NCBI GenBank assembly: GCA_963810165.1
Contig: CAWEMG010000017.1
Coordinates: 7,229-71,228 of the forward strand
Reading direction: 5' to 3'
Source of the DNA: an uncultured Gemmatimonadales bacterium
GTDB taxonomy: Bacteria > Gemmatimonadota > Gemmatimonadetes > Gemmatimonadales > GWC2-71-9
DNA length: 64,000 nucleotides
Of this stretch, positions 4,839 to 61,890 are shown piece by piece. Position numbers and translations under genes: made by a program. Every line of letters begins with the position of its first letter. The first letter of the stretch is position 1. The notes below the pieces were generated by a model. It was not told the DNA's origin. It saw nothing but the letters and a program-made list of their open reading frames with translations, and did not search any database.

Positions 4839-5450
4839 ATGGGCACACAGCACGGCCGGGGCAACGACCCCACCGACTTCCGGTCTGAACGCTCGGAGCG
4901 AGGGGGAGGGCACGGAGCGGGGTCGCTCCTGATGGCGACGCTGCTAGGAGTGGGTATCGGCCTACTCGCGGCACCACAGCCCGGCACCAGGACCCGGAAG
5001 CTGCTGCTGCAGCGCCTGGCTGCTCTCAGCGAAGGTGTGGGAGAGGGTATGGAGGAGGTTCAGGGCGTCAGCAGTAAGGCCGGCAAACGGCTGAAGCGCC
5101 GGCTGGCCAAGCTGCGTGAGGAGGCCGGGGAGGAGCGGGTGCCGGAACGCTGGAGCAAGTCCAAGCTCAAGCGGGATCTCGACCTCGACGACGAGGAGGA
5201 ATCCGGCTCGTTGGGCAAGCTGCTGACGCTCGCCGCCGGGCTGGCTGCAACCTACTTCTTCACCAGTGACCGGACCGCCACGGCTCGGGTCCGGGTCCAG
5301 GAGACCGCCGCCGACGTGGGGCGCCGCGCCACGGATCAGTGGGATCGCTTCCAGCGTGGCGGCCTGCGCGCCCGTCGTGAGGCAAACGAGAGCCGCTCGG
5401 AAACCCGCTCAGCATCGAACCCGTCTGATGAGGCCCCGCAGGCAGGCTGA
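4839..5450 (+). CDS. YtxH-domain stress protein
   Basis: TM segment followed by GLLAAPQPGTRTRKLL (YtxH-type motif), then Lys/Glu-rich helices. Confidence 0.55.
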   Translation: MGTQHGRGNDPTDFRSERSERGGGHGAGSLLMATLLGVGIGLLAAPQPGTRTRKLLLQRLAALSEGVGEGMEEVQGVSSKAGKRLKRRLAKLREEAGEERVPERWSKSKLKRDLDLDDEEESGSLGKLLTLAAGLAATYFFTSDRTATARVRVQETAADVGRRATDQWDRFQRGGLRARREANESRSETRSASNPSDEAPQAG

Positions 5451-5523
5451 CCTCGCCATGGATTCGCGAGGCGGCGAACGGCCCCCAGGTGCGGGGCCGT
5501 TTTCTTGTTTACCGGCGAGGACC

Positions 5524-7622
5524 ATGATCCATTGGCGGCAAGGGATCGAGTGGCTGGGGCGCCCCGAAGGCCGGCGCCGCCGCATCGCACTCCTCGGACT
5601 GGGATTCAGTCTGGCATTCATGGTCGTCGTGATGTCGTGGGTGGCGAGCTGTGGCTTTCACGGCTGTCCCTCGACCGCGCAGATCCAGGCCTTCCGACCC
5701 AGCGAGGGCAGCAGGGTACTGGATCGAACCGGCAAGCCGCTCGGGAGGCTGAGCTACGTCCGCCGCATCAACGTTCCCATCTCGACGGTACCGCGCTCGC
5801 TGCGGGCGGCGTTTATCGCCACCGAGGACCGCCGATTCTACTATCACGGAGGAGTCGACTGGCGGAGCGCGGGGCGCGCGTTGCTGCGCAACCTGTCCGC
5901 CGTGGGAGTCCGGGAAGGGTTCAGCACCATCACTATGCAGGTGGTGCGCAATGCGTTTCTGCCTCATCTCTCCAACGAGCGAAGCCTCCGCCGCAAGCTG
6001 ATAGAGGTCGAGCTGGCACGGCGCCTCGAGCGCACCCTGACCAAGCAGCAGATCCTGGAGATGTACCTGAACGTCATCTATCTGGGAAATGGAACTTACG
6101 GGGTCGAGGCCGCCAGCCGGGATCTCTTTGGAAAAAGCGTCGCCCGCCTGTCCCTCAGTGAGGCTGCCACGATAGCCGGCCTGGCAAAGGGTCCCTCGCT
6201 CTACGGGCCTCGACGCCACCCGGATCGAGCTCGCGCACGCCGGGACCTGGTGCTCTCGCTGATGGCGCGCGAAGGGTACGTCTCACCCGAGCTGGCGGAG
6301 CACGCCCGCAGGGAGCCGCTGCGGCTGGCACGAGCGGAGTGGCGCCCAGCGCGAGATCGTTCCTACGCGCTGGACCCGGTCCGGGCAGTGGTGGACTCCA
6401 TACTCGGCGCGGATGCAGCCACGGCGGGCGACCTGGTCGTCCACTCGACCATTGACGCCGAGGCCCAGCACGCCGCCGAAGGCGCAATCAAGATCCAGGG
6501 CGCGGCGATCCAGCGGCGAGCAGCGCGGCCGCGAGCGGAGCCGAGCTGGAGGGGGCAGTGATCGCGCTGGACCCCCGGACCGGTGAGATCCGGGCTCTGG
6601 TCGGTGGCCGCCGCTCCGTGACGCGTGGATTCAACCGGGCACTGGGAGCGCGGCGCCAACCGGGGTCGGCCTTCAAGCCGTTCGTTTACGCCGCGGCGCT
6701 CAGGGCCGGATACAGTCCGGCCACGATACTCGACGATTCGCCGGTGGAGATCTCGGACGCGGGACGGGTCTGGAGGCCGGAGAATTTCGGGGGTGAGTAC
6801 GGCGGCCCGCTCACCTTTCGGCGGGCGCTGATGCGCTCGGCCAACGCGGCGACCGTGCGGCTCAGCCAGGCCCTTGGCGAGGAGCGGGTAGCCTCGTTGG
6901 CTCGGCGTTCTGGCATCCGCAGCCGAATGGACGCGGTTCCGGCCCTGGCGCTCGGCGCCATGGAGGTGACTCCGCTGGAGCTGGTCGTCGCGTACGCTCC
7001 GTTTGCCAACGGTGGCATGACCGTGCAGCCCTCCATCGTCAGCCGGATCGAATCGGCGGACGGCTCGCTGCTGTGGCAGTCACGGCCCAGGAGTCCCGAG
7101 CGGGTGCTGGACGAAGCCGAGGCTTTTCAGCTGACCTCGATGCTTCAGTCGGTGGTGAATGGCGGCACCGGCCGGGTGCTGCGCGATATGGGCGTGAAGG
7201 GACCGGTGGCTGGGAAGACCGGCACCACCAACAACGGCGCCGACGTCTGGTTTATCGGGTATACCCCGACACTCGTCGCCGGAATCTGGTTCGGCTATGA
7301 CAGCCCCCGGCCGATCGGAGGCAACGCCTCCGGTGGACGGCTGGCCGCCCCGGCATGGGCAAGGTTTTACCTGAAGGGATGGCGCGAGGAGTCGCCGGTG
7401 GGCGCCTGGAGCGCGCCGGCCGGCCTGGTGCAGGAAACGATCGACGCCACCAATGGTGAGATCGCCAACGAATGGTGCCCTCAGACGCAGCGGGAATGGT
7501 TCAAGGCCGGCACTGAGCCCACCAGTACCTGCCGCATCCATCACGCTCCGTTCCTCGATCAGTTGGAAGAGTTGGGACGCAAAATCGGGAAGGCGCTCGG
7601 CCGGATCCTCAAAGGCCTGTAG
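5524..7622 (+). CDS. class A penicillin-binding protein (transglycosylase + transpeptidase), frameshifted in this assembly
   Basis: GT51 motifs EDRRFYYHGGVD, GFSTITMQVVRN, RKLIEVELARRLE in ORF 5266..6561 from ATG 5524. Transpeptidase motifs SAFKPF (SxxK), RSANAAT (SxN), KTGTT in ORF 6558..7622. Frame change somewhere in 6480-6545; ELEGAVIALDP reads in the second frame. Confidence 0.9.
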
Positions 7623-33541: not shown

Positions 33542-34150
33542 TCAGAGGACGCGGCGGGAAGCGACGTGCCGGGCCAGGTACCACTTGCCCCGCGGAGTCG
33601 ACAGGTCGTCGTATACCACGCCCCCGGCGCCGGCACTCGAATGGATAATGCGGTTGTTTCCGGCGTAGATGGCGACATGGTCCACTCCACGGCCCTTGCT
33701 GGAGAACAGCATCAGGTCGCCGGGCTTGAGAGCGGTGGGGGTACGAGGCAGGGCTCGCCCTGCTGTGGCCTGCTGGCGGGAAGTGCGGGGCAAGCTCACG
33801 CCATGTTGACCAAACACGTACTGCACGAAACCGGAGCAATCGAAACCAACAGCCGGCTTGGCGCCGCCATACAGATAGCGCTTCCCGAGATACTGGTCTC
33901 CGGTGGCCAGCACGCGGGTGGCGCTGGCGCTCGCCGTTGTGCGCGGCAACCGCGCCCTGGGAGTCGAGCGGGCCGGTTTGGCGGCGCGAACGCTGACCCG
34001 GCTGCCACCGAGGGTAGCGACGACTGCGATAGGACCGAGGGTTGCTCGCACGGCGGGACCGCCGAGGCGGGGAAGCGACAGATTGACCTGCGCAGACAAC
34101 ACGCTCGGGAGCCCCGCCAGGAGCGGCAGAGTACAAGCGATTAGTCTCAT
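33542..34150 (-). CDS. NlpC/P60 (C40) cell-wall peptidase
   Basis: ATG 34150; signal MRLIACTLPLLAGLPSVLSAQ; catalytic FDCSGFVQYVF and DHVAIY. Confidence 0.85.
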   Translation of the reverse strand: MRLIACTLPLLAGLPSVLSAQVNLSLPRLGGPAVRATLGPIAVVATLGGSRVSVRAAKPARSTPRARLPRTTASASATRVLATGDQYLGKRYLYGGAKPAVGFDCSGFVQYVFGQHGVSLPRTSRQQATAGRALPRTPTALKPGDLMLFSSKGRGVDHVAIYAGNNRIIHSSAGAGGVVYDDLSTPRGKWYLARHVASRRVL

Positions 34151-37102
34151 TGTGACCTCACTCACTGAGTGACCGGGAGCGGTCAATGCAGGAGGTATGC
34201 CAAGATCCTCCAGCACCAGGCCCGCCTCGGTGATAAACAGATGCCCCTGAGCGCGGTAGCCGCCTCGCTGCTCGGCGTAAGTCAACACCAGTCGCGACTT
34301 GGCGCGGGTCATTCCCACGTAGAGCAGTCGACGGGCCTCCTGGATCTCGGCGGTTCGATCCTCCTGAATCGCCCTCCAGCCGGGAAGCACCTGGTTCTCG
34401 ACACCCACGACGTAGACCCGGGAGAATTCCAGACCCTTGGTCGAATGGAGGGTCAGCAGATTCACACGGTTGGGATCGGTCTCAGCCCCTTCGCTGCTCG
34501 ATAGCGCTACCCGGCGCAGCATATCGTCGATGTGCTCGCCGAGAGTATTTCCAGCGCTGGCCTGTATCAGCATTCGGAGGCGCTCGACGGAATCCGGGTA
34601 GCGCTCATCCACGGGGCGATCCTCGCGCAAGCGCTCCATGAGTGCGCGGCCTCCAAGCCGCTCGATCACTTCCTCGAGCCCAGGCGCGCCTTCGGCACCC
34701 GCGGCAAGCTCGGCAGCGTAGATGTCCAGGCAGTCGCTGTACCGGCCAAGGGTGAAGGGCCGGGTGATGTCACGAAAGAGAGTCTCTTCCTTGGAAGGGG
34801 AGATCTGCGGATCGAGCGCCAGCGCCAGACCGAGCTGGTCCAGAAGGTGGACCAGAGCAACCGTGCGGGCACGGCGCACCCTCAGCTCGTTGAGCCTGGG
34901 CACGACCGCGGCGAGTACGACGGCGTCGTCGAGTGCGTGATGCTCTCTGCCGGGAGGAATGTTGTACCTCTCGGCGAGGTACTTGAGCTTGACGCTGCCA
35001 TCGACCACGGCGCGTGCCAGTGGGAGGGTGTCGTAGAAAACCAGCTCATCGAACCCCTCGAAGCCACCGCAGGCGCGCCGAAGAACCGGAACATCGAACT
35101 CCTGTCCGTTGTGTGCCACGACGAGGTCGCTTCCCACGAACTCGCGGAACCTCCGCCACACTTCGGACATCGGCGGCGCGCCGATCAGGTCCGCATCGGT
35201 GTAGCCGTGTATATCGGTGGCCTGCGACGAGATGGAGCGGCTACACGACACCAGGGAATGGAACTGATCCACCACCACGTTGTCCGCGAACCCGTACCGC
35301 CGCAATGTCTACGATCTGGGACGATTCGAAATCAAAGTCGCTGGTCTCGATATCGAAGGCGACAAAGTCGTCGAAATCGGCTTTCAGGGCCTCGGTGTGT
35401 ACCAGTTGAAGCGCCTTGAACAACCGGAGCGGTGACCCCCCGTCGGGGTCTTGGACGGCCCGTAGTACCAGATCGGCCAGCTCCGGGCACGTCGGCGGAC
35501 GTGAGCCGGTGAGCGCGAGTTATCCCCGCGCCTCGGAGCATGGCGATCAAGGGGATCTCGAGACCAGCTCTCGGTTCGACCCAGACCCGCCCTTCCGAGG
35601 CAACGCACTGCGTCAGTCGCTTGGCCAGGGCAAGAGCCCCCGGATAAAGCGATGGCTCCCTCAGATCATGATGGTACTCCTCCAGTGGATTCCGCCCGGC
35701 CCCGATGGGCCGCGCGAGCAGCTCATCCACCAGGCCGGTCAAGGATTGGTGAGACCGGCCCATGCCCCGCAGATTTTCCAAGTGATAGATCAAACGCCAC
35801 ACCCGTCTCCGGTCGGCATCGCCTTTGGGTCGTTGAGTGGCGAAGGCGCGCAGGTTCCTGAGAAAGTCCTTCTCTCTGGATGAGGCTTTGCGGATTTCCT
35901 GCCGCAGGGCGGGACTGAGAGCCAGAGCTGCCAGCGCTCCCAGCAGGATTGGGTCATCCGGCGAGCGAATGACACGCAAGGACGCGATTACCCATCCGAC
36001 GACTTTGTCGTCGACCAGGGCTTGGCCGCGGGCCATCCGACAGGGGATTCCCGCCCGAATCAACCGCTTCTCGAGATCCCGTCCCATCCAGCGGTACCGG
36101 TAGAGAATGGCATAGTCACCCCAGCCGGTGTCTCCCGTTGCGCGCTCGCTCAGAATGTCCCGAATGAGCCACTCGGCCTCGACTTCTTCGTTCTCGAATC
36201 CGCACGCCACCACCTCGAAGGGCGACTTCAGTGTGGTGTCGATCTGCTTTTCGAACAGTACCGGATTGCAGGCGATCAGTCTCCGGGCAGACTCCAGAAT
36301 CTGAACCGAGCATCTGCGGTTCTCCTCGAGCACGATCGGCTCGCGGAGATTGAAGTCCTCACGGAACCGGCCCATGATGCCGGGATCGGCACCGGTCCAC
36401 GAGAAAATCGATTGCTCGTCGTCTCCCACGCCAAAGAGACGGCGGTGGTCCTCGGCAAGCCGGCGGACGATGCCATACTGGGTCGGACTCAGATCCTGGA
36501 ACTCATCCACCAGCACGTAATCCCAGCGTGAGCGCAGCTCCTTGGCCGCGCTCTCATTGGTGCGAAGAAGTTTCTCGGTCAGCGTGATGAGATCATCGAA
36601 ATCCGCCAGATTCCTGGACCGCAGCGCCTCCTGGTACTGCCCGAAGAACGCCATGCCACGGTCGCTCAGTACCTTGCCTTGTAACTGGTGGAGACTGAAC
36701 TGCGTCGAGCGCGTGGGAGCATCGCTTGGCTGGAATGCGGAGCCGGCGCAGCACCCGCTCCTGGTACTCGCGGTCTGCCACGCCGAAGCCTGGTCGCAGG
36801 CCGCACCGCTCGGCGTAGTCCCGCAGGATCCTGAGGCAAATCGAATGCAGCGTCCCGCGGGTGACGTCGGCCGCGGTGACTCCCCGGGTGTCATGAAGGC
36901 GGGTGGCGATCTCCTCGGCAGCCTTGTTGGTAAAGGTCACTGCGAGAATTCGGCGTGGCGGGATGCCCAGCTCTTCGATCAGATGCTGGATGCGGTAGAT
37001 CAGGCAGTAGGTTTTCCCGGCTCCAGGGCCCGCAATGACCAGAAGCGGGCCCAGTGGCGCCTCGATCGCTCTGCGCTGCTCAGGGGTCGGCGCGAAACTC
37101 AT
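34151..37102 (-). pseudogene. UvrD/PcrA-family helicase with a DEDDh 3'-5' exonuclease domain nested between helicase motifs IV and V (at least 3 frame breaks as assembled)
   Basis: Helicase motifs: VIAGPGAGKTY (I), VTFTNKAAEE (Ia), VLVDEFQDL (II), GVGDDEQSIFSW (III), ENRRCS (IV), LHSTKGLEFSRVYV (V), LLYVGMTRAKSRLVL (VI). Exonuclease motifs: FVAFDIETSD (ExoI), VAHNGQEFDVPVL (ExoII), HHALDDAVVLA (ExoIII). Breaks about 36720, 35520 and 35285. No stop codon before the NlpC/P60 ATG in the final frame. Confidence 0.8.
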
Positions 37103-37782
37103 CAGCGGGCAGTACCGACGAAGGAGCGGGCCCACCGAACCAGAGCCTCAGCCAGCTCTTCCATCACAGAGCCGGCCGTGCGCCCGGATCGAGACGGAAC
37201 CCCGAACGAGTGGTCGGCCCCTTCGACGAGATGAAGTGTTGCGCGCGATCCCAGCCGCGAGCAGACCTCGGTGATGAGGTCCTGCTGGGCAAATTGATCA
37301 CGGGTTCCCTGAAGGAAGAGCATCGGTACATCAACCCTTTCGAGGTGCTCGGCCCGGCTGGTACCTGGTTTACCTGGAGGGTGAAGCGGAAACCCCAGAA
37401 ATGCCAGCCCGCGGATCCCCGGTAGCGAGGTGGCGGCCGCACCCGACGTCATGCGTCCGCCGAATGATTTGCCGCCCGCGATAACCGGGAGATCCGGCTC
37501 CAGCTCCTGAGCCTGGCTGACTGCTGAGCGCACTGTTGCTTCGGCGGTAGCGGGAGCGTCCGGCCGACGTGCTCCGGCCTCCATATAGGGAAACTGGTAG
37601 CGCAGGGTGGCGACCTCTCGCTCTGCCAGCGCCATGGCCATCGACTCGAGAAACCGATGGCGCATCCCCGCCCCGGCGCCGTGGGCCAGAACGTAGAGCA
37701 GCCAGGGATGGCGTGGACGGTCGAGTAAAGCTGACACCGGAGCCCGGCCACCATCGAGCAGGATCTTGAGCTCTTCAGTCAT
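37102..37782 (-). CDS. COG3571-type alpha/beta hydrolase (KANL3/Tex30-like)
   Basis: VLAHGAGAGMRHRF, AGGKSFGGRM, FLGFPLHPPGKP and LFLQGTRDQF. TGA overlaps the helicase ATG (37102). Confidence 0.7.
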   Translation of the reverse strand: MTEELKILLDGGRAPVSALLDRPRHPWLLYVLAHGAGAGMRHRFLESMAMALAEREVATLRYQFPYMEAGARRPDAPATAEATVRSAVSQAQELEPDLPVIAGGKSFGGRMTSGAAATSLPGIRGLAFLGFPLHPPGKPGTSRAEHLERVDVPMLFLQGTRDQFAQQDLITEVCSRLGSRATLHLVEGADHSFGVPSRSGRTAGSVMEELAEALVRWARSFVGTAR

Positions 37783-38827
37783 GCGACGCGGCGCCAGATC
37801 GAGCCCTTACACACTCCTCCATGCGCTTGTCATTCCGGAACCGCAGGAACACGGGCTGTCGCAGTAGCCCATCGTCCGTCCGCTCTGTGAACTTCACTTC
37901 GCACACCAGCCGAGGCTCGACCCAGGTGAGCCCCCGTTCCTGCGGGATCGGCCCACCGCACGGTGCGCGCGCGCGGCGGGTCTCTTCCAGGGTAGCTCGA
38001 ACCTGGGTCAGTTGCCTGTCGCTAAAGCCGGTTCCAGCCCGTCCGGAATAGGTGAGGATGCCGTCCACGTATTGTCCGAGTAGCAACGCGCCGAATCCGG
38101 TCCGCGCCCCCCTGGACGCAGTAAAGCCCACCACGACGAAGTCATCGGAGAGACGAGTGCGGATCTTCAGCCAGCTGGGAGACCGGCCGCTGCGATAGGG
38201 CGAGTCCGCTCGCTTCGCCAGAATTCCTTCCAGACCCAGCTTCAGGACCTCCTGATAAAGCAGCTCCCCGTCCCCCTCGACGTGGTCGAGGTAGCGTATC
38301 ACCCCTCCCGCAGACAGGAGCTTCAGCAGCAGTGCCTTTCGGGTCGAGAGCGGGAGAGGCCGCAAGTCGAAGCCTTCAGCAGCAAGAAGATCGAACGCAA
38401 AGAAGGTCGCGGGGATCTCGACGGCGGCCTGACGGATATCGAGGCTCCGGGTCAGCTTGGCACGCTGCTGAAGCCGTTGAAAGCTGGGCCGGCCGGAGCC
38501 ATCGAGCGCCACCACTTCGCCGTCAAGGACCAGGCCGTCTACGGGGAGGGCCGCTACCGCACGGCTCACTTCGGGAAATCCGGCCGAGAGATCGTTACCG
38601 TTGCGGGAGAAGAGCCGCGGCTTTCCCGAGACGCAGGTAGCCAGCAGGCGATACCCATCCAGCTTGAGCTCAAACAGCCATGCAGGGTCTGAGAAGGGGC
38701 GCTCCCTTGGCTCGGCCAGCATCAGGGGCGCGGTTTCGGCATTGATATCCCTTCTCGGCGGGCTTAGCCGCTCGAGGGCGGCGCGAATGCCGAGGGGGGA
38801 AAGCGGGCCGGATTTGGACTCAGGCAT
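37775..38827 (-). CDS. ATP-dependent DNA ligase (LigD ligase-domain/LigC-type; no Pol or PE domain)
   Basis: Adenylation motif I ELKLDGYRLLA, GLVLDGEVV, FFAFDLL, EGILAKR, WLKIR, OB-fold tail. 350 aa. Confidence 0.9.
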   Translation of the reverse strand: MPESKSGPLSPLGIRAALERLSPPRRDINAETAPLMLAEPRERPFSDPAWLFELKLDGYRLLATCVSGKPRLFSRNGNDLSAGFPEVSRAVAALPVDGLVLDGEVVALDGSGRPSFQRLQQRAKLTRSLDIRQAAVEIPATFFAFDLLAAEGFDLRPLPLSTRKALLLKLLSAGGVIRYLDHVEGDGELLYQEVLKLGLEGILAKRADSPYRSGRSPSWLKIRTRLSDDFVVVGFTASRGARTGFGALLLGQYVDGILTYSGRAGTGFSDRQLTQVRATLEETRRARAPCGGPIPQERGLTWVEPRLVCEVKFTERTDDGLLRQPVFLRFRNDKRMEECVRARSGAASHD

Positions 38828-43802: not shown

Positions 43803-43824
43803 CGAACGCTGCAGCCTGCAAACA

Positions 43825-43860
43825 AAGAAGCCCGGGAGCGCTCCCGGGCTTCTTGTTTTG
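43825..43860. terminator. bidirectional rho-independent terminator
   Basis: 13-bp stem AAGAAGCCCGGGA / TCCCGGGCTTCTT with loop GCGC. Flanked by A-rich 5' and GTTTTGTG 3' sequence, between convergent genes. Confidence 0.65.
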
Positions 43861-43897: not shown

Positions 43898-46528
43898 TCA
43901 GCGGACTCTTCGTCCTCCTCGGACGAGTGCTGCCACCGCGGTCTTGAGGTCGCAGGCGAGGTCGCGTTCCCGCCGCAGCGCGCCGATCAGCGCCTCGGCC
44001 TGCTTCATCTGGAAGCTGAGCGCGCCGGCAGACTCCATCGCGTGATCGACCACCGTCTTCTGGGCGGTCAACGACTCCACGGTGGCGCGGATGCCGAGGG
44101 CAAGCGCTTCGGCGCGAGCCAGGCGCTGTTCGGCCCGCTCCAGCTGACGCTTCCGGGACTCGAACCCCTTGAGCGTCTCCTCGGTGGTCTTGAACTGATC
44201 CTGGGTCGCCTGCAGCATCGTCCGGGTCTCCTCGATCTCGCGCCGCGCCGACCCGATGCTCTGGACGTCTTCGACGGTGCGCTCGGCCAGATCGAACACG
44301 TGCTTCACCTGCGCCTCGATCGCTTCCACGCCGGCCTGGCGGGCCAGGGTCTGCTCCAGCGCCTTCGCGGCCTGGGCCTGCGCCGACTCCCACTTCGCGA
44401 GCAGCTCCTCGAAGTGCGCCAGCTGGCGGTCGATGTACTTGAGGGCCGCCGCACGCGTTTCCAGCTCCGACGAGACCTGCTGCAGGGTCCCGGCGCGTTC
44501 CTCGGCGTGCGCCAGGGTGGTGCCGACGACGCGGGTGACTTCCTCCATCCGCTGGGCGGCTTCCGCGGCTTCCTTCCGGAGGGCCGACGCACGGGTCAGA
44601 TGCTCGGTCGCCTTGTCGAGGGCGCCCTGCCGCTGGTCGAGCTCCTGGCCCAGGAGGCGGATCTTCTCTTCCACCTGGTTGATCTGCTGGGTCCGGCTTT
44701 CCATGGCCCGGACCGAGTCGTCCACCAGACCCATCCGGCGCTCCGCCTCTTCGACTGACGAGGTGACCACCGAGATCGTATCGCCGAGACGCTGGGCGCC
44801 TTCGGCCTGACGGCTGAGCTGGGCGAAGCGGGTTTCGGCCGCCTCCATCCGGGTCTTGAGGCCCTCGGTGCGGTCCTGCAGCTCGGCGCTCATCGAGCCG
44901 ATCTCGCCCAGGGTGCGCTGGACGTTCTGCACCATCTCACTCTGAGAATGGATCTGCACCATCGAACCCTTGACCTGCTCGACCTCGACGCGGATCCGTT
45001 CCACCATCGGCTCCAGACCGCTCAGCTCCTTCACCTGGGTTTGGACCTTACGGGTCCACACGTCGGCGTTGGCGAGCCAGGCCTGCGTCTCGCCATGGGT
45101 CTCCCGGAGACGGCTCATCTCCTCCGACGCGGAGCGCATCTGCTCCAGACCGTCGGCCAGCAGCTCGCGGGTGCCCTTGAGCGCGGCCAGCTGCTCGACG
45201 GCCTGCTCGACGCCCGGCCTGATCTCATCCAGCCGCCGCATCCGGGCGGCCAGGTCGGTTGCCATGTTGTCCAGCCGGGAGACGTCCTGCCGCAGTGAGC
45301 TCGACCGGGCCGCTTCCTGGGCCAGCGCGGTGACTTCCTTGGAGAGATCGGCGATCTGCTCGCCCACGTTCCGGACCTGGGTCTGGACCGCCGCGGTGCC
45401 CTGGCTGGCGGCGTCCAGCACGGCGAGACGAGCCTCGCACTCCTTCACCGCGTTGCGCAGATCGGCGATGCGCTCGCTGACCGCGTGCAGACCACGATGC
45501 TCCAGCTCGAAGCCCTCGCTGCTCTTCCGCATCTGCTCGCGCAGGTCGGTGAGCGCCTGGCGGGCGGACTGCTGGGCATCCTCGATCTTCTGCGAGGTGC
45601 CCTGAAGCTCCTCGGTACGGGACAACACCTTGTCCTGAATCGTCTTCACTTCGCTCAGCTTGGCTTCGATCGGACCAAAGCGGCGGATCTGCTCTTCCTG
45701 CCGGCGGAGCCAGGCATCCAGCTCGCGGTCCATACGGGTAAGCTGGGCGATCTGGCTGGCGGCGCGGTCGATGGCCTCGCGCTCCTGCTCCAGCATCGTG
45801 GTCTTCTGGGCGACCTGATCGGCCAGCGCCTTCAGCACGGCCAGCTGGTGCTGAACGTCAGGGATCGAGGTGGAGGCCTGATTGATCGGCTCCAGCGCCC
45901 GCTCGACCGACTGAACTCTCCGGACCATATCCTCCAGCTTGCCGGTGGCGGCCTGGAAGTCCTGATCGAAGTTCTCCAGCCGGGATGTCGTATGACGGTG
46001 GGCGGTGAGGGCGTCGTCGTGCTGGGTCCGCATCCGGGCAACGTTCTCGGCCTGCTCGGAGAGCTGGGTCCGGAGGGTTTCGGAATCGGTCCGGAGCGAG
46101 TTGAGGGGACCCTGCAGGCTGAGGAACGAATCCACCTGCTCGCGCAGCAGCAGCGCGGTCTCGACCTTGTCGCTCAGCCCGGCCATCTGGGTCTGGAGCC
46201 GCTCCACGCCTTCGCTGGCATGGCCGAGCCGGACCTCGGTGGCAGTCTGGGTCTTGATGACTCGCTCGACCTGCTCCTCCGCCATACTCAGCTGACTGCC
46301 GAGCCTCTCGAGCCCGGCGACTTGGCGCTCGACTTCTTCGCAGCGTTCCCGAAGTGCGTCGAACTCAGCCGCACGCTCCAGGATGGGAGCGAGCGACCTC
46401 AGGTCGTTCGCGGCGGCTTCGGCGCGGGCGACCAGCGCCTCCAGCGCGGCGGCAACATTTCGTCCGCTCGAATCGACGGCGACCACCGAGTCGTCATCGC
46501 GGCGGCGACCTTTCAGGAAGCTGACCAT
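43898..46528 (-). CDS. 876-aa coiled-coil protein, unknown function
   Basis: Uninterrupted ORF. Almost entirely heptad-like E/A/R/Q/L-rich helix. No P-loop, TM or signal peptide visible. Confidence 0.8.
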   Translation of the reverse strand: MVSFLKGRRRDDDSVVAVDSSGRNVAAALEALVARAEAAANDLRSLAPILERAAEFDALRERCEEVERQVAGLERLGSQLSMAEEQVERVIKTQTATEVRLGHASEGVERLQTQMAGLSDKVETALLLREQVDSFLSLQGPLNSLRTDSETLRTQLSEQAENVARMRTQHDDALTAHRHTTSRLENFDQDFQAATGKLEDMVRRVQSVERALEPINQASTSIPDVQHQLAVLKALADQVAQKTTMLEQEREAIDRAASQIAQLTRMDRELDAWLRRQEEQIRRFGPIEAKLSEVKTIQDKVLSRTEELQGTSQKIEDAQQSARQALTDLREQMRKSSEGFELEHRGLHAVSERIADLRNAVKECEARLAVLDAASQGTAAVQTQVRNVGEQIADLSKEVTALAQEAARSSSLRQDVSRLDNMATDLAARMRRLDEIRPGVEQAVEQLAALKGTRELLADGLEQMRSASEEMSRLRETHGETQAWLANADVWTRKVQTQVKELSGLEPMVERIRVEVEQVKGSMVQIHSQSEMVQNVQRTLGEIGSMSAELQDRTEGLKTRMEAAETRFAQLSRQAEGAQRLGDTISVVTSSVEEAERRMGLVDDSVRAMESRTQQINQVEEKIRLLGQELDQRQGALDKATEHLTRASALRKEAAEAAQRMEEVTRVVGTTLAHAEERAGTLQQVSSELETRAAALKYIDRQLAHFEELLAKWESAQAQAAKALEQTLARQAGVEAIEAQVKHVFDLAERTVEDVQSIGSARREIEETRTMLQATQDQFKTTEETLKGFESRKRQLERAEQRLARAEALALGIRATVESLTAQKTVVDHAMESAGALSFQMKQAEALIGALRRERDLACDLKTAVAALVRGGRRVR

Positions 46529-52409: not shown

Positions 52410-53226
52410 CTTGGTTCCTGGGGGTTAGGGTGTGACCTGGGTCGCCCAGTGCGACGGGAGCAAGATGGGTGGGCCGGGTCGCCGGGTAAGTGACCAGAGT
52501 CACGGGTGCTCTCCGCCCCGCGGGTAGCTCCAGAGGACGGGCGGATCCTGGATTGTGCGACTATTTTTAGTCGATGCCCCTGTCCGCTTTTCATCCCGTC
52601 GTCGCCCGCTGGTTCGAACAGAAGTTCGGCGAGCCCACCCCTCCGCAACGCCTTGGCTGGCAAGCCATTCGGGAGGGCCGGCACACCCTCATTGCGGCCC
52701 CGACCGGGTCCGGAAAGACCCTGGCGGCGTTCCTGGAGGAGCTGGACCGGCTGTTTCGCGAGGGGATGGAGTCCCCCCTGCCGGATGAGACCCGGGTGGT
52801 CTACGTCTCGCCCCTGAAGGCCCTCAGCGCCGACATCCATCTCAACCTGGCCGAGCCCCGCCGGGAGATCCGCCGGCTGGCGGAGGAGATGGGGTACCAG
52901 GCCCCCCGGATCACAGCCGCCATTCGCTCGGGCGACACGCCCACGTCCGAGCGGGCCGCGATGCTGCGAAAGCCCCCTCACATCCTGGTCACCACCCCCG
53001 AGTCGCTCTATCTCATGCTCACGGCCCGGCGAAGCCGCGAGATGCTCCGCACTGTCCGCACCGTGATTGTGGATGAGATCCACGCCGTGCTGGAATCTCG
53101 CCGGGGGGCGCATCTGGCGCTTGACGCTGGAGCGCCTGGCCCACGTCGCCCAGCAGCCGCTGCAGCGGATCGGCCTGTCGGCCACGATGGAGCCGATCGA
53201 CGAGGTCGGACGGTGGCTGGTTGGAG

Positions 53227-53313
53227 GCGGGAACGCGAAACAGCGGAACGAGCGGAACAGGCAGGGCTAACTCACCCCGTCACGACTTCTTCCGCCCTTT
53301 CCGCCTCTCCCGC
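53227..53313. repeat. hairpin element with (AGCGGAACG)n-type arms inside lhr
   Basis: gcgggaacgcgaaacagcggaacgagcggaacagg versus cttcttccgccctttccgcctctcccgc (imperfect reverse complement). Carries TAA 53268-53270 in the incoming lhr frame. Confidence 0.55.
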
Positions 53314-54440
53314 TATCATAAACGCGGGCCACCGCCGCGAAGCTCGACCTCGCCCTCGAGCTCCCCGGCTCCCCCCTCGAAGCGGTCATGTCAGGCGAGG
53401 TGTGGGGCGAGGTGTACGACCGGTTGGCCCAGCTGATCGAGTCGCACAAGACCACGCTCGTATTCGTGAATACCCGCCGGCTGGCGGAGCGGGTCTCTCG
53501 CCACCTGGCCGAACGGGTGGGAGAGGATGCCGTCACCGCACACCATGGCAGTCTCTCCAAGGAGACTCGCCTCGACGCCGAGGAGCGGCTCAAGACCGGC
53601 AAGCTCAAGGCTCTGGTGGCGACCGCCTCCCTCGAGCTCGGCATCGACATCGGCCACGTGGATCTGGTTGCCCAGCTGGGCACGCCGCGGCGGATTTCCA
53701 CCTTCCTGCAGCGGGTGGGTCGCTCGGGGCACACCGTGCATGGCACTCCCAAGGGCCGGCTCTTTCCGCTCAGCCGTGACGAGCTGGTCGAATGCACCGC
53801 CCTGCTCCAGTCGGTTCGGCGGGGACAGCTCGACCGGCTGGTCATTCGGGACAAGCCGCTGGATGTGCTGGCGCAGCAGGTCGTGGCGGAGTCGGCGGGC
53901 GAGGACTGGGATGTCGAGGAGCTGTTCCAGCTGGTCCGGCGGGCCTATCCCTACCGTGACCTTACTCGCGCCGAGTTCGACGAGATCGTTGCGATGCTGG
54001 CCCAGGGCTTCTCGACCAGCCGGGGCCGCCGGGGCGCGCTGATCCATCACGACACGGTGAACGGGAAGATCAAAGCCCGGCGCGGCTCCCGCATGCTCGC
54101 GATTACCTCCGGCGGCGCCATCCCCGATAACTCGGATTTCCGGGTCATTCTCGAGCCGGACAACACCTTCATCGGCACGGTGAACGAGGATTTCGCGGTC
54201 GAGAGTCTCCAGGGCGACATCTTCCAGCTGGGCAATACATCCTGGCGGATTCTGCGGGTTCAGCAGGGAACGGTGCGGGTGGAAGATGCCCACGGCCAGC
54301 CGCCCAGCATTCCGTTCTGGCTGGGCGAGGCACCGGCCCGGAGCAACGAGCTGTCTACCGCGGTGGCGGAGCTCCGGGGAGAGGTGGAGAAGCGGTTGGA
54401 GGACCGGGAGGGAGCGAAGCAGTGGGTCGAAAGTCGCTAC

Positions 54441-54535
54441 TGTTGTCATCCTGAGGGAGCGAGCGACCTGAAGGATCGCCCTGGACCGAGCCAGAGATCC
54501 TTCGCTGCGCTCAGGATGACACCGCTCATCACTAC
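54441..54535. repeat. GTCATCCTGAGC-type palindromic element inserted in lhr
   Basis: Arms 54445-54477 (gtcatcctgagggagcgagcgacctgaaggatc) and 54496-54520 (gatccttcgctgcgctcaggatgac). CTAC at 54437-54440 and 54532-54535. Confidence 0.7.
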
Positions 54536-56503
54536 AGCGCAGCCGCAGCTGCGCATCAACTGGTCGAGTACCTCGGCGAGTCCAAGCGACTGCTGGGCAC
54601 CCTGCCGACCCAGGAGACCATCGTCGCCGAGCGGTTCTTCGACGAAGCCGGCGGGATGCAGCTCGTCATCCACTCGCCCTTCGGGAGCCGAGTGAACCGG
54701 GCCTGGGGACTGGCTCTGCGGAAGCGGTTCTGCCGTCAGTTCAACTTCGAGCTCCAGGCCGCCGCCACCGAAGACGCGCTGCTCCTGTCGCTCGGGCCGC
54801 AGCACTCCTTCCCGCTCGACACGGTCTTCAAGTTTCTCCACCCCGACACGGTGGAGGAGATCCTGGTGCAGGCCCTGCTCGACGCGCCCATGTTCGGGAC
54901 CCACTGGCGCTGGAACGCGACCATCGCGCTGGCAATCGCGCGGAGCCGGAACGGCCGCAAGACTCCGCCCCAGATTCAGCGGATGCAATCCGAGGACCTG
55001 CTGGCCGCGGCATTCCCCCACGCCGTCGCCTGCCTGGAGAACATTCCGGGCGACCGCGAGGTGCCGGATCATCCGCTGGTACGGCAGACGATCGACGACT
55101 GCGTGCACGAGGTGATGGACCTCGAGCTGCTTACGACGGTGCTCCGGAGGATCCAGTCGGGCGAGATCCGCTACGTCGCCCGCGACTTGCCCGAGCCGTC
55201 ACCGCTGACCCACGAGATCCTGAACGCGAGACCCTATGCGTTCCTCGACGATGCACCGGCCGAGGAGCGGCGGACTCTGGCGGTCCACACCCGCCGCGCC
55301 TTCGAGCCCTCGTCCGCCGACGACCTCGGCGCCCTGGACCCGGCCGCGATCGACCGGGTTCGGGACGAGGCCTGGCCCGACCCGCGCGATGCCGACGAGC
55401 TGCACGACGCGCTGCTGACCTCCGGCTTCCTCACCGAAGTGGAAGGGATCTCGGGTCGGGACGGCGTGTCGTGGTTGCCCTGGTTCCAGGAGCTGAAGGA
55501 TGCCGGGCGAGCGGACCGGGTAACCTTGGCCGATGGCGAGGTTCTGTGGGTGGCAACGGAGCGGCTGGGTGAAGTAGGCGGGGCAGCGGGGCAGCGGGGC
55601 AGCTGGGCAGTGGGGCCGTCTCAGAAGAGGCTGCTTCGCGAGCTCTTCAGAGGCAGGCTCGGGATCGTCGGGCCAACCACGGCCGCCATCGCTGGCCGCG
55701 TCGCTGAACGTGGACGAATCCGATGCCGACATCGCTCTGGCGGCGCTGGAGGTCGAGGGTGTGGTCCTCCGCGGCCATTTCAGCCCCCGCAACGGCGGAC
55801 CGGCCACCCTCGAGTGGTGCGACCGCCGTCTGCTGGCGCGGATCCATCGCTACACCCTCAACCGGCTCCGGGCCGAGATCGAGCCGGTCAGCGCGGCTGA
55901 CTTCATGCGCTTCCTGTTCGCGTGGCAGCGGGTGGATCCGGACGAGCACGCCGCCGGGCTGGAAGGTCTCGCCGCCGTGATCACGCAGCTGGACGGCTTC
56001 GAGGTGCCGGCTGCCGCCTGGGAGAGCGAGGTGCTCTCGTCCCGGGTGGCGGAGTACGATCCCACTCTGCTGGACACCCTCTGCATGATGGGGCGGGTGG
56101 CGTGGGGGCGGACAGGCGGGCGGCGCGGACGGCGCGGACGGGCGGTCCGATTCGGTCCACGCCCATTGCGCTATTCCTGCGGGAACACCTGGGCGACTGG
56201 CTGCGGGATAGTCCTGAGGCCGAGTCGCAGCTCTCCAGCTACGCCGGCATCGTGAAGCAGACGTTGGAGCAGCGGGGCGCCTCGTTCTTTCATGAGCTGA
56301 CCGCCATGTCGGGTTTGCTACCAACGCAGGTGGAGCAGGGTTTGAGCGAGCTCGCGGGCCTGGGACTGGTGACCTCCGACAGCTTTGCCGGACTTCGAGC
56401 GCTCATCACGCCTTCGAGCAAGCGCAAGCCGCTGAGCGGCGCAACTCGACGATACCGCACTGCGCCGGTGGGAATCGAAACGGCGGGGCGATGGTCACTG
56501 CTG

Positions 56504-56587
56504 GGCGGGCGGGCGGACAGTCGGACGGAGGGACAGACAAGAATGATCAAGGGGATGACCGTCCGCCCGTCCGTCTGTCCGCCCGTC
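56504..56587. repeat. hairpin with GGGC/GGACNG repeat arms inside lhr
   Basis: ggcgggcgggcggacagtcggacggagggacagac ... gtccgcccgtccgtctgtccgcccgtc, loop about 22 nt. The lhr frame changes across it. Confidence 0.55.
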
Positions 56588-57137
56588 AAACCGAGCTGCT
56601 GGCAAAGACACTGCTCCGCCGCTACGGGGTGGTGTTCAAGCGGCTCCTGGCCCGCGAGACCGGCGCCCCACCCTGGCGCGACCTGCTCATGGTCTATCGC
56701 CGCCTGGAGGCACGGGGCGAGATCCGGGGCGGCCGCTTCGTCGCCGGCATGTCCGGGGAGCAGTTCGCCCTTCCGGAGGCCGTAGGCCAGCTGCGATCAT
56801 TCGGCGCCTGGACGGCGGCGGCCGGCTGATCGCGCTGAGCGCCGCCGATCCGCTCAACCTGACCGGGATCATCACGCCGGGCGACCGGGTCACCGGCATC
56901 ACCCGCAACCGCATTCTCTATCGGGACGGCGTGCCGGTGCTCGCCGCCGAGGCCGGTGGAGATGAGGCCGATCGGCAGCGAGGAGTCGCCTACCCCCGAG
57001 ATGATCCAGGCCCTGGTGCGTAAATCGATCAGCCCGGCGTTGCGGGCGCGACTCGCCATGTCGGGGAACCTGGCCGCCAGCACGCCGCTCAACCGGAAGC
57101 CTGGCAAGCGCCGGACGCGGCCGGAAAAGGTGTCGTC

Positions 57138-57540
57138 TTGATCATTCAGTGGCTCTACGGCTACAGCGACGTCGCCCTGCTCCTGATGCGACTGCTGGTA
57201 GGGCTGGTGTTCGTGACCAGTGGCTGGAGCCACGTGAAGGATCCCGTGGGTCGAGGCCAGAGCATCGGCGCGAGCCCCGGCTTCACCCGCTTTCTCGGAG
57301 TCGCCGAGCTGGCCGGGCGGGCTCGGAGTGGCGTTCGGAGTGCTGACCCAGTTCGCGGCGCTGGGGCTGATCCTGATCATGCTGGGTGCAATCCAGAAGA
57401 AGATCGTCGTCTGGAAGACAGGGTTCTGGGGCAAACACAGCGACGGCTGGCACTACGATCTCATGTTGATCGTCATGTGTCTGGTGATTGCGACGACGGG
57501 CGGAGGCCGGTACGTGTTGGAGTGGGCTATTGGCTATTAG
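57138..57540 (+). CDS. DoxX-family membrane protein, frameshifted
   Basis: LLLMRLLVGLVFVTSGWSHV, then FGVLTQFAALGLILIMLGAIQKKI in ORF 57328..57540. Break about 57320. TTG 57138 overlaps the lhr stop. Confidence 0.7.
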
Positions 57541-58301: not shown

Positions 58302-58733
58302 ATGCGCCATCTCGCCTTTACCCTCGCCGGCGTCCTCGCCACCGCGCTGCTCGGCTGTGGTGACCGGAAGAACAACGAAACCGGCGGCGTGAGCGATACG
58401 TCGCTTACGATGCCCACCCCCGAGGTCGAGGAGGCGCCGGTCGAGGCGCGCGACTTCTCGTTCGACGACCGGCAGGGGTTCGCGGAGTCTATCCGGCAGC
58501 AGCTCACGGAGCTGGACACCCAGATCGAGCAGCTGGCGGCGGAGGTGAAGTCGAAGGGCGGCGCGGTGAGCGACCGGGCGGTAGCGCGGATCCGGGAGTC
58601 GCGGAAGGCAGCCGAACGGAGCTTGAGTCGCGTCGACAACGCCACGGCGGACACCTGGGAAGACGTGAAGACGCGGGTGAACCGCTCGGTGGAAGATCTC
58701 GCCGAGGCGGTTGAGGGCGCGATGCCGAAATGA
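58302..58733 (+). CDS. lipoprotein, unknown function
   Basis: MRHLAFTLAGVLATALLGC lipobox; helical Glu/Ala/Arg-rich body. Confidence 0.5.
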   Translation: MRHLAFTLAGVLATALLGCGDRKNNETGGVSDTSLTMPTPEVEEAPVEARDFSFDDRQGFAESIRQQLTELDTQIEQLAAEVKSKGGAVSDRAVARIRESRKAAERSLSRVDNATADTWEDVKTRVNRSVEDLAEAVEGAMPK

Positions 58734-58765
58734 CACCGTTCCGCTCTCTAAATGAAGCGGAAGGT

Positions 58766-58825
58766 GTCACCCTGAGCGCAGCGAAGGGGCCAGAACTGAA
58801 GATCCTTCGCTTCGCTCAGGATGAC
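58766..58825. repeat. GTCATCCTGAGC-type palindromic element
   Basis: gtcaccctgagcgcagcgaagg ... gatccttcgcttcgctcaggatgac, between the lipoprotein gene and the vgb-like gene. Confidence 0.7.
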
Positions 58826-58840
58826 AATCAAGGAGTAACG

Positions 58841-59845
58841 ATGCGATCAATCATTACAGCAGCCATTCTCGCTGCCACCCTGGCACCGGCAACCCAGCTA
58901 GCGGCGCAGGTCCCCATCAAGGAATGGCCGGTCCCTTACGCCGACTCACGCCCGCGCGACCCGTACGTGGACAGCCAGAACCGGGTCTGGTTCGTGGGCC
59001 AGGTCGGCAACTACATCGCCTACCTCGACCCGGCTAGCGGGAAGTTCCGCCGCTATGAGATCGAGGACGGCGCCCTGCCCCATAACCTGATCGTCGACAA
59101 GAAAGACATGATCTGGTACGCCGGGAACGGCAACGGGCACATCGGCAAATTGGATCCGGCCTCGGGTAAGGTCACCCGCTATCCGATGCCGCCCGGGGTG
59201 CGGGATCCCCACACGTTGATCGCCGACGGCAAGGACAACATCTGGTTTACGGCTCAGCAATCGAACTACGTCGGGCGACTCAACACCAAGAGCGGGAAGG
59301 TGGACGTGGTCCAGGTTCCGTCACCCAACGCCCGGCCATATGGGATCGAGGTGGATTCCAAGGGGCGGCCCTGGTTCAACGAGTTCGGCAACGAGAAGAT
59401 CGGCACTGTCGATCCGGCGACGATGAAGATCACCGAGTACTCGATGCCCAACGACCGCTCCCGCGGCCGACGGATCGCGATCACGTCGGACGACCGGATC
59501 TGGTACGTGGACTACACCCGGGGCTACCTCGGCCGGTTCGACCCGGGCTCGAAGCAGTTCAAGGAGTGGGCTCTGCCGGGCGGAGCGGGTGCGCTGCCAT
59601 ACGCGATGTCGATGGACGACAAGGACCGGCTCTGGCTGGTGGAGACCGGATCGCAGCCGAACCGGTTCGTGGGGTTCGACCCGAAGACAGAGAAGTTCTT
59701 TGGCATCACGCCGGTGCCGAGCGGGGGCGGCACGGTGCGGCATATGATGTTCGACGAGAAGAGCGGGCAGATCTGGTTCGGAACCGACAACAACACCGTC
59801 GGGCGGGCAGAGGTGACGGCGGCGAACTCGCCGCCGTCATCCTGA
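58841..59845 (+). CDS. Vgb-like (streptogramin-lyase-type) beta-propeller protein, secreted
   Basis: AAGGAG 58830-58835, ATG 58841, signal peptide. Repeated blades (PHNLIVDKKDMIWYAG, PHTLIADGKDNIWFT, PYGIEVDSKGRPWFNE, RIAITSDDRIWYVD, PYAMSMDDKDRLWLVE). Confidence 0.7.
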   Translation: MRSIITAAILAATLAPATQLAAQVPIKEWPVPYADSRPRDPYVDSQNRVWFVGQVGNYIAYLDPASGKFRRYEIEDGALPHNLIVDKKDMIWYAGNGNGHIGKLDPASGKVTRYPMPPGVRDPHTLIADGKDNIWFTAQQSNYVGRLNTKSGKVDVVQVPSPNARPYGIEVDSKGRPWFNEFGNEKIGTVDPATMKITEYSMPNDRSRGRRIAITSDDRIWYVDYTRGYLGRFDPGSKQFKEWALPGGAGALPYAMSMDDKDRLWLVETGSQPNRFVGFDPKTEKFFGITPVPSGGGTVRHMMFDEKSGQIWFGTDNNTVGRAEVTAANSPPSS

Positions 59846-59915
59846 GCAATCACTGTCATCCTGAGCAATCACTGTCATCCTGAGCGCAGCGAAGGATCCC
59901 TCCGAGTGGGATGAC
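59836..59915. repeat. GTCATCCTGAGC-type element with triplicated left arm
   Basis: 19-nt unit gtcatcctgagcaatcact at 59836-59854 and 59855-59873. Full left arm 59874-59899. Degenerate right arm to 59915. Confidence 0.7.
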
Positions 59916-61133: not shown

Positions 61134-61167
61134 TGTCATCCTGAGCGTGGCGAAGGGCTCAGGATGA
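61134..61167. repeat. short form of the GTCATCCTGAGC palindrome
   Basis: GTCATCCTGAGC-gtggcgaagg-GCTCAGGATGAC, a perfect 12-bp stem, in the divergent rmuC / membrane-protein promoter region. Confidence 0.75.
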
Positions 61168-61225
61168 CAACACCTCGATCTGACAGTACCTTATCCGGCG
61201 TCCCATCCCACAACTCGGAGGCTCC

Positions 61226-61821: not shown

Positions 61822-61890
61822 GTCATCCTGAACGAAGTGAAGGATCTCTCGATTGCACGCCGAGGGATCCTTCGCTGCGCTCAGGATGAC
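61822..61890. repeat. GTCATCCTGAGC-type palindromic element
   Basis: gtcatcctgaacgaagtgaaggatc ... gatccttcgctgcgctcaggatgac, between convergent genes. Confidence 0.75.

Follow-up and report, generated by a model that had tools for sequence, protein, structure and literature searches.

The stretch of DNA analyzed here, referred to as the window, comprises 64,000 nucleotides of contig CAWEMG010000017.1 (positions 7,229 to 71,228; GenBank assembly GCA_963810165.1) from an uncultured Gemmatimonadales bacterium. At positions 52574-57141 of the window, a gene for the long Lhr helicase (lhr) is interrupted by nine changes of reading frame. This fragmentation is probably caused, for the most part, by consensus indel errors in an intact, functional gene with in-frame repeat linkers. 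Among the readings offered by a first-pass annotation of this DNA, the best supported is that of tolerated in-frame insertions, resembling Rickettsia palindromic elements (RPEs), with assembly errors on top. Its support comes from in-frame elements in the lhr genes of four relatives (loci L001-L004) and from frameshifts in at least ten other genes of the window. According to this explanation, the inter-domain linkers of lhr would hold in-frame palindromic or tandem-repeat elements, like those of the closest relatives, and the nine frame changes would mostly be small consensus errors of a low-accuracy, probably long-read, metagenome assembly. The gene would appear to be the most fragmented one mainly through its greatest length and its especially indel-prone hairpin and repeat linkers. 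We infer a technical rather than biological origin of the indels, and translation of the hairpin-encoded peptides as surface linkers.

Frame structure of the lhr gene

The GC content of the window is 65%, and its nearest relatives are metagenome-assembled genomes (MAGs) of Gemmatimonadales. The lhr span covers 4,568 nt (~1,522 codons), and open reading frames (ORFs) in three forward frames jointly encode a complete long Lhr. The frames were mapped by ungapped tblastn with the intact ortholog of locus L001, a single ORF of 1,539 aa, as the query; phases are given relative to position 52574. The matches tile the gene colinearly in the phase order 0-1-0-1-0-1-0-2-1-2, which corresponds to nine frame changes. 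The gene and the segments matched by tblastn are as follows.

52574..57141, forward strand: full-length lhr (long Lhr helicase), ~1,517 codons, nine frame changes, colinear tiling with L001
52574-53122, forward strand: phase 0 segment
53121-53225, forward strand: phase 1 segment
53303-53338, forward strand: phase 0 segment
53343-54434, forward strand: phase 1 segment
54536-55684, forward strand: phase 0 segment
55662-56123, forward strand: phase 1 segment
56072-56503, forward strand: phase 0 segment
56578-56799, forward strand: phase 2 segment
56799-56957, forward strand: phase 1 segment
56959-57135, forward strand: phase 2 segment

As given, the gene does not form a single uninterrupted ORF. 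All eight ORFs over which the first-pass annotation had spread it are present, and its count of at least nine frame changes agrees with the nine mapped here. The additional, unlisted frame that it had proposed was recovered at 56799-56957 with 87% identity to L001. No stop codons were found within the homologous segments or in the 1,517 stitched codons, and nine minimal edits restore one ORF of 1,517 aa without an internal stop.

The stitched protein contains the Pfam domains DEAD (residues 22-208), Helicase_C (280-384), WH_Lhr (412-576), DEAD_assoc (675-876), WH3_Lhr (1103-1187), and WH4_Lhr (1333-1406). This is the domain order of a long Lhr. Together with the colinear tiling, the full domain set bears out the earlier statement that all conserved Lhr blocks are present in order over ~1,520 codons. 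In the comparison with the NCBIfam model PRK09751 (an Lhr model of 1,538 positions), residues 320-1431 of the stitched protein were aligned with 645 bits, which is under the strict cut-off of 1496. The identity between the L001 protein and the stitched protein is 84% overall and 88% over the query fragment. L001 also matches the structurally characterized Lhr of M. smegmatis (7LHL, E = 4.5e-201; 5V9X, E = 2.5e-156).

Five linkers of the window gene, A to E, contain palindromes or repeats.

53226..53302, forward strand: linker A, an imperfect palindrome between DEAD and Helicase_C, read RERETAERAEQAGLTHPVTTSSALSAS; -31.5 kcal/mol, z -1.7
54444..54521, forward strand: hairpin B, 78 nt, a family-1 element located between WH_Lhr and DEAD_assoc; -42.5 kcal/mol, z -4.3
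55580..55603, forward strand: linker E, a variable linker with the 8-nt tandem repeat (GGGGCAGC)x3; in-frame reading AAGQRGS
56106..56140, forward strand: linker C, a G-rich repeat of the GGCGGAC type at the end of WH3_Lhr; z -0.15
56506..56585, forward strand: hairpin D, with 30-nt arms (83% complementary) of GGGCGGAC-like units, directly before WH4_Lhr; -54.8 kcal/mol, z -5.6

Stable hairpins are formed by B and D. The palindrome of linker A is weak, being equaled by 10 of 200 shuffled sequences, and linker C gave no hairpin on folding. Hairpin D and linker C are both composed of GGGCGGAC-like units, of 4 nt and 8 nt. All insertion sites lie between the Pfam domains of the stitched protein, and the alignment to M. 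smegmatis Lhr 7LHL is gapped or broken at sites A and B. Judging from these boundaries, the inserts would occupy permissive linkers.

Single-base indels were placed by nucleotide alignment of the window gene to four orthologs. The tally is about four bases gained, four lost, and one net change of +2, all on the forward strand.

53120, forward strand: extra base (+1), phase 0 to 1; gap in all four orthologs at this column
53225..53226, forward strand: missing base (-1), phase 1 to 0, at the entry of linker A; position uncertain by a few nt, the linker being variable
53339, forward strand: extra base (+1), phase 0 to 1; four-ortholog alignment
54444..54521, forward strand: net +2 nt, phase 1 to 0, within hairpin B; frame map and repair edits
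55685, forward strand: extra base (+1), phase 0 to 1; four-ortholog alignment
56106..56140, forward strand: -1 change, phase 1 to 0, within linker C; frame map and repair edits
near 56504, forward strand: phase 0 to 2 change in a G run at the 5' edge of hairpin D; repaired by one G
56798..56799, forward strand: missing base (-1), phase 2 to 1; four-ortholog alignment
56958, forward strand: extra base (+1), phase 1 to 2; four-ortholog alignment

The frame of hairpin B can be repaired either by deletion of 54453-54460 or by insertion of one base. That of linker C (AWGRTGG..ARTARTGGPIRSTP) is repaired by one base inserted anywhere in 56112-56124, and one G inserted after 56503 gives an in-frame reading of 41 residues at hairpin D.

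Four of the nine breaks fall within the hairpin and repeat linkers, which make up 6.3% of the gene (binomial p = 0.0015). Therefore, these linker repeats are prone to indels, either in the sequencer consensus or in the cell. Three breaks had earlier been noted to coincide with palindromic insertions at 53.2, 54.4, and 56.5 kb; this holds for the strong hairpins B and D, but the 53.2-kb palindrome is weak. The remaining breaks had been regarded as simple indels. They are indeed single-base changes in the four-ortholog alignment, except that the break at ~56.12 kb sits in the G-rich repeat linker.

Repeat linkers in intact relatives

Palindromic elements were found in frame at the same lhr linkers in intact ORFs (~1,520-1,545 aa) of loci L001-L004. 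These loci represent four independent Gemmatimonadales MAGs, and their contig names are of a short-read-assembler type ('k127' in L001). At site B of L001, CHPERSEGS...LPQDDS is read in frame from a canonical TGTCATCCTGAGCGCAGCGAAGGATC...CTCAGGATGACA hairpin (z -5.4), and site D of the same locus holds a variant of the family-1 repeat (z -5.7). Diverged copies occupy site B in L003 and L004 (z -5.5 in the latter). Site A of L004 contains a hairpin of GCGGGGC repeats (-90.9 kcal/mol, z -5.7). At site A of L002, a family-1 element is present only as its left-arm half, read as CHPEG, and its hairpin is not significant (z -1.09). Each of the window hairpins B and D coincides with a frame change, whereas L001-L004 carry their elements in frame.

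As far as the sequences of these loci can tell, the hairpins of lhr are genuine and not artifacts, because the intact lhr genes of close relatives carry them in frame. The first-pass annotation had noted that a corrected, uninterrupted ORF lacking the hairpin segments would make them an assembly artifact; the uninterrupted orthologous ORFs retain them. The site-B insert is missing in L005-L012, which are relatives at 74-81% identity. It therefore arose within the clade of the window and its close relatives.

Hairpin B of the window (78 nt) is an inverted form of the L001 copy (76 nt). The two are identical at 67 of 79 positions when one is reverse-complemented and at 56 of 81 positions in the same orientation, and the 2-nt difference in length is the frame change. 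Between window positions 54444-54521 and L001 positions 2221-2296, the inner arms and the loop are flipped between conserved 12-nt ends. The opposite orientations suggest in-place inversion by recombination between the arms.

Linker content is variable even among relatives with 94% identical protein. Besides in-place inversion, its turnover includes the presence of different elements at one site in close relatives. The GGGGCAGC 8-mer repeat also occurs in linker C of L003, and GGGCGGAC- or GGGGCAGC-like units recur at other lhr linkers of the relatives. In the window and its relatives, units of the GGGCGGAC type were seen only in lhr linkers, except for one non-lhr match in L012, and a dispersed family is unproven for hairpin D. 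The database protein P0005 reads AAGQRGS at linker A; this may be the same GGGGCAGC repeat, known here from the protein only.

The lhr gene was found as one long ORF in 51 of 80 related loci, and the shorter ORFs are mostly ended by contig ends. Broken lhr genes were found in 5 of 17 loci from 'MFD' MAGs and in 2 of ~42 other complete loci. We take the MFD assemblies to be nanopore-based. P0003 and P0005, the closest proteins in the database (94% and 90% identity, respectively), are uninterrupted across the first three break sites.

The best 120 protein matches to the lhr fragment (P0002-P0120 listed) are all no longer than 613 aa, and many of the N-terminally complete ones stop inside the site-B linker. 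P0037 and P0036 differ by a frameshift at this linker, and P0003 and P0005 stop at contig ends shortly before it. Assembly breaks or frameshifts at the repeat-prone site-B linker could explain the short database proteins, as could a biased search tool.

Origin of the frame changes

Signatures of purifying selection were detected along the whole gene. The dN/dS ratio between the window lhr and the intact L001 gene is 0.083 overall and 0.03-0.23 in the individual fragments (11 fragments, including everything past the first frameshift), and the ratio among intact orthologs is 0.107-0.151. In relative-rate counts with L002, L003, or L004 as the outgroup, 63-68 amino-acid changes were unique to the window and 53-63 to L001 (p >= 0.36). 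Thus, no relaxed selection was seen, in a test that has low power for very recent inactivation. The lesions are small indels only; no block of the protein has been lost.

Frame disruption is not confined to lhr. A codon-usage frame parser reported ~43 frame switches in 64 kb; its calls at 57133, 63362, and probably 37807 are gene boundaries and were left out of the count. A GC3 frame plot was too coarse for counting frameshifts. A frame switch was predicted in ~40% of the parsed genes. In about ten genes other than lhr, at least 16 frameshifts were confirmed, either by synteny or because a Pfam domain continues over the stitched junction; about ten further switches are parser predictions only. 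The confirmed cases include the following.

1860: frameshift in an aminotransferase gene; Pfam domain across the junction
17289: frameshift in a Peptidase_S13 (D-Ala-D-Ala carboxypeptidase) gene; Pfam domain across the junction
20085: frameshift in a Peptidase_Mx (metallopeptidase) gene; Pfam domain across the junction
30595 and 30950: frameshifts in an alpha/beta hydrolase gene; Pfam domains across the junctions
35303 and 36724: frameshifts in a UvrD-like helicase/exonuclease gene; Pfam domains across the junctions
43510 and 43592: frameshifts in a DUF892 protein gene; Pfam domains across the junctions
47653, 48003, and 48037: frameshifts in a Ser/Thr kinase gene; Pfam domains across the junctions
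51617 and 51772: frameshifts in the BrkB gene directly upstream of lhr; Pfam domains across the junctions
~57315: frameshift in the gene directly downstream of lhr; comparison with the syntenic L002, L003, and L004

The genes adjacent to lhr are as dense in frameshifts as lhr itself. The window is rich in indels (~0.5-2 frameshifts per kb, confirmed or predicted, in many genes), and pseudogene calls made from it would be untrustworthy without read-level checks. Long genes always appear the most fragmented in such sequence.

In assemblies of low-accuracy long reads, conserved genes typically contain many +/-1 changes without nonsense codons, and longer genes have more breaks. The window resembles them in its +/-1 changes across the contig, in the lack of nonsense codons, and in the increase of breaks with gene length. 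Broken lhr genes occur in the MFD MAGs as well, with one or two breaks versus nine in the window lhr. Several observations weigh against a technical origin of the indels. The frameshift density is 1.97 per kb in lhr and ~0.45 per kb in the window, a difference of about four times (Poisson p = 3e-4). A 2.6-kb gene at 43898-46528 has no frameshift at all, and clustering of this kind would also be expected of real pseudogenes. The usual nanopore signature is missing, as homopolymers occur at normal density and the indels lie outside their runs. In hairpin B, a net +2 nt or a block of 8 nt has changed, unlike the classic 1-nt error. Finally, dS to the nearest intact ortholog is 0.87, and dN/dS would stay unchanged after a very recent inactivation.

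Some of these points could instead indicate genuine recent pseudogenization of lhr, and perhaps of many genes, with the hairpins as bystanders. We consider this unlikely. The high frameshift density of lhr relative to the window mean and the hairpin B change, which exceeds one base, would fit it, as would the clustering of frameshifts (9 in lhr, up to 5 in the DUF3618/DUF892 gene, 3 in the kinase, 3 in the UvrD-like gene, and 0 in other long genes). Evidence against it is the low dN/dS in all fragments, the lack of any lineage-specific excess of amino-acid changes, and the absence of nonsense codons. The neutral accumulation of nine indels should normally bring about ten times as many substitutions, as is known from mutation-accumulation studies, and some nonsense codons with them, neither of which is seen. 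Moreover, frame switches in ~40% of the parsed genes, including the aminotransferase and a probable class A penicillin-binding protein (PBP), would be implausible for a free-living soil member of Gemmatimonadales. The earlier proposal that lhr is a pseudogene in decay, which has become a sink for hairpins, is not supported by these data, nor by the order of events: since intact orthologs hold the hairpins in frame, these are older than the breaks. Alternating +1 and -1 shifts were also considered as a sign of compensation. This was rejected, as the alternation lacks significance and the segments enclosed by the shifts show conservation in the shifted frame.

The concentration of breaks in the linkers is open to two further interpretations. 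Partial support exists for hairpins that provoke local consensus errors, as had been suggested: they would account for the four breaks in 6.3% of the gene, but the intergenic copies of the family-1 repeat in the window look well formed. The same concentration could reflect real slipped-strand variation, in which gain or loss of repeat units, or hairpin inversion, shifts the frame in a part of the population and produces heterogeneity or switching similar to phase variation. The 8-nt units are not a multiple of three, the breaks at B, C, and D all have the same sign (net +2 or -1), the inversion of hairpin B relative to L001 demonstrates that the elements do rearrange, and the linkers differ between the relatives of 94% protein identity. 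Even so, slipped-strand variation is quite improbable as the cause of the fragmentation: of the nine breaks, five are located in ordinary, conserved sequence, indels of the same kind are seen across the whole window, the repeats are in frame in all orthologs sampled, and one added G within a G-rich run is enough to fix the break at C and likewise the one at D. Programmed -1 ribosomal frameshifting stimulated by the hairpins, with the gene expressed as written, was rejected and has a negligible probability. Two changes of the -1 type do coincide with strong hairpins, but no slippery heptamer X XXY YYZ was seen by eye upstream of B or D, and the frame shifts within the hairpins or at their edge, not 5-9 nt upstream of them. 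In addition, orthologs with the same hairpins read through them in frame, and six other breaks have no structure at all. Consensus errors in an intact gene thus fit the results best.

The family-1 repeat and comparable systems

Hairpin B is a member of a dispersed repeat, herein referred to as family 1, whose copies begin with TGTCATCCTGAG, finish with CTCAGGATGACA, and have arms of 26 nt. Four further copies were found in the window, all of them intergenic.

58766..58825: intergenic family-1 hairpin; -36.7 kcal/mol, z -5.8
59836..59895: three tandem family-1 half-sites (GTCATCCTGAG) with 19-nt spacing, then a full left arm; identified by sequence
61135..61168: short intergenic family-1 hairpin; -25.1 kcal/mol, z -6.8
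61822..61890: intergenic family-1 hairpin; -48.7 kcal/mol, z -8.1

The ORF 58730..59845 ends with the TGA of the first half-site (59843-59845), which serves as its stop codon. Outside the window, the exact 26-nt arm (TGTCATCCTGAGCGCAGCGAAGGATC) was found in metagenome contigs from soil, peat, and sediment, at least 120 and more in number (loci L081-L200 listed). Among the matches listed, the GC content of the contigs ranges from 34 to 76%, and both the loops and the partner arms are variable. Of 100 metagenome copies sampled, 8 are located in long ORFs, nearly all of these being apparently non-coding or upstream of the real gene. Coding copies are thus rare, and family 1 as a whole is not characterized by in-frame insertion.

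No match to Rfam at the gathering threshold was found in the whole window; permissive E-values yielded only sub-threshold, generic matches to miRNA precursors (hairpins A and D and the intergenic copy at 61.8 kb). Literature searches with the arm sequence returned unrelated primers only and no published description, those with the peptide translations (HPERSEG and others) no match, and those for hairpin repeats of Gemmatimonadetes nothing relevant. No Y1 transposase was found among the ~18 window genes scanned with Pfam, a scan to which no search aimed at RAYT or TIRYT was added. In 734 kb of arm-bearing loci, only two GIY-YIG-like nuclease motifs were observed (L130 and L163), both less than 400 nt from an arm. 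They are a weak lead for a linked nuclease and too few to conclude from.

Family-1 sequence occurs at lhr sites A, B, and D in different lineages (as a half element only at site A of L002) and its reading frame is CHPE(R)SEG in every case. It is conceivable, if doubtful, that family 1 is an undescribed, phylum-spanning repeat that entered the Gemmatimonadales lhr at no fewer than three inter-domain linkers, together with other repeat-armed hairpins. As part of the same proposal, the element can flip in place without breaking the frame, as the comparison of the window with L001 suggests. Were this true, it would speak for insertion targeted to the linkers of a repair helicase, or for selective retention there, and the non-triplet repeat units could be real hotspots of frame switching.

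Several known systems are similar to these elements. RPEs are short dispersed palindromic repeats located between genes and, in frame, within the ORFs of many genes, to which they add a peptide segment (PMC10969869; cited in PMC3733652). The likeness lies in palindromes dispersed in and between genes, and in the in-frame segments of the otherwise conserved L001-L004 lhr. The hosts differ, being free-living Gemmatimonadales here and an obligate intracellular alphaproteobacterium in the case of RPEs. The elements described here are ~40-120 nt long, compared with ~150 nt for RPEs, and share no sequence with them. Furthermore, nearly half of RPEs are intragenic, in contrast to the few coding copies in the family-1 sample.

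In several species, repetitive extragenic palindromic sequences (REPs) have been described within the genes uvrA/B/C/D, recBCD, and dnaE2 and within those for DNA ligase and RNA helicase, in the main text of Di Nocera, De Gregorio and Rocco (2013; PMC3733652). The same text reports several sites in some genes, presumed to be flexible linkers, and REP termini that can supply stop codons (PMC3733652). Both features have counterparts here, in the repair helicase gene lhr with elements at 3-5 linkers and in the family-1 half-site that provides the TGA stop at 59843-59845. The lhr gene is not named in the main text of that paper. The GTAG or CGTC tag combined with a stem of 5-13 bp that marks the REP superfamilies is not seen in family 1: none of its copies has either tag, and its arms measure 26 nt. 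By analogy, family 1 may work like an intragenic REP or an RPE, although it is not a member of those families.

REPINs and MITE-like repeats (similar to miniature transposable elements with inverted repeats) consist of two inverted arms that form a long hairpin. They are dispersed and mostly intergenic, often lie between convergent genes, and can resemble terminators. Family 1 shares the paired inverted arms and the dispersed, mostly intergenic copies, often with a terminator-like look between convergent genes. It differs in being known from its repeat sequence, so that a transposase, a terminal inverted repeat/target-site duplication structure, or mobility would be hypothetical. Among the matches listed, the range of GC content of the contigs with the exact arm is also broader than for typical lineage-specific REPINs.

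In-frame tolerance of palindromic repeats in DNA-repair genes is thus a known phenomenon, extended here to the lhr of Gemmatimonadales. What may be new is the family-1 repeat itself and its behavior inside lhr, and the very wide environmental spread of the 26-nt arm may merit a separate survey.

Some other features of the window are of minor interest. The class A PBP-like gene at 5266-7622 has its transglycosylase and transpeptidase in two ORFs, 5266..6561 and 6558..7622, which overlap by 4 nt; this is either a frameshift or a true split. A DNA-repair neighborhood is located at 33542-38749, ~15 kb upstream of lhr. It includes a UvrD-like helicase fused to an exonuclease domain of the RNase_T type, an NlpC/P60 gene, and, with an Abhydrolase_11 domain after it, an ATP-dependent DNA ligase. 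A palindrome with 92% complementarity (CAAACAAAGAAGCCCGGGAGCGCTCCCGGGCTTCTTGTTTTG) at 43819-43860 is situated between convergent genes and resembles a bidirectional terminator.

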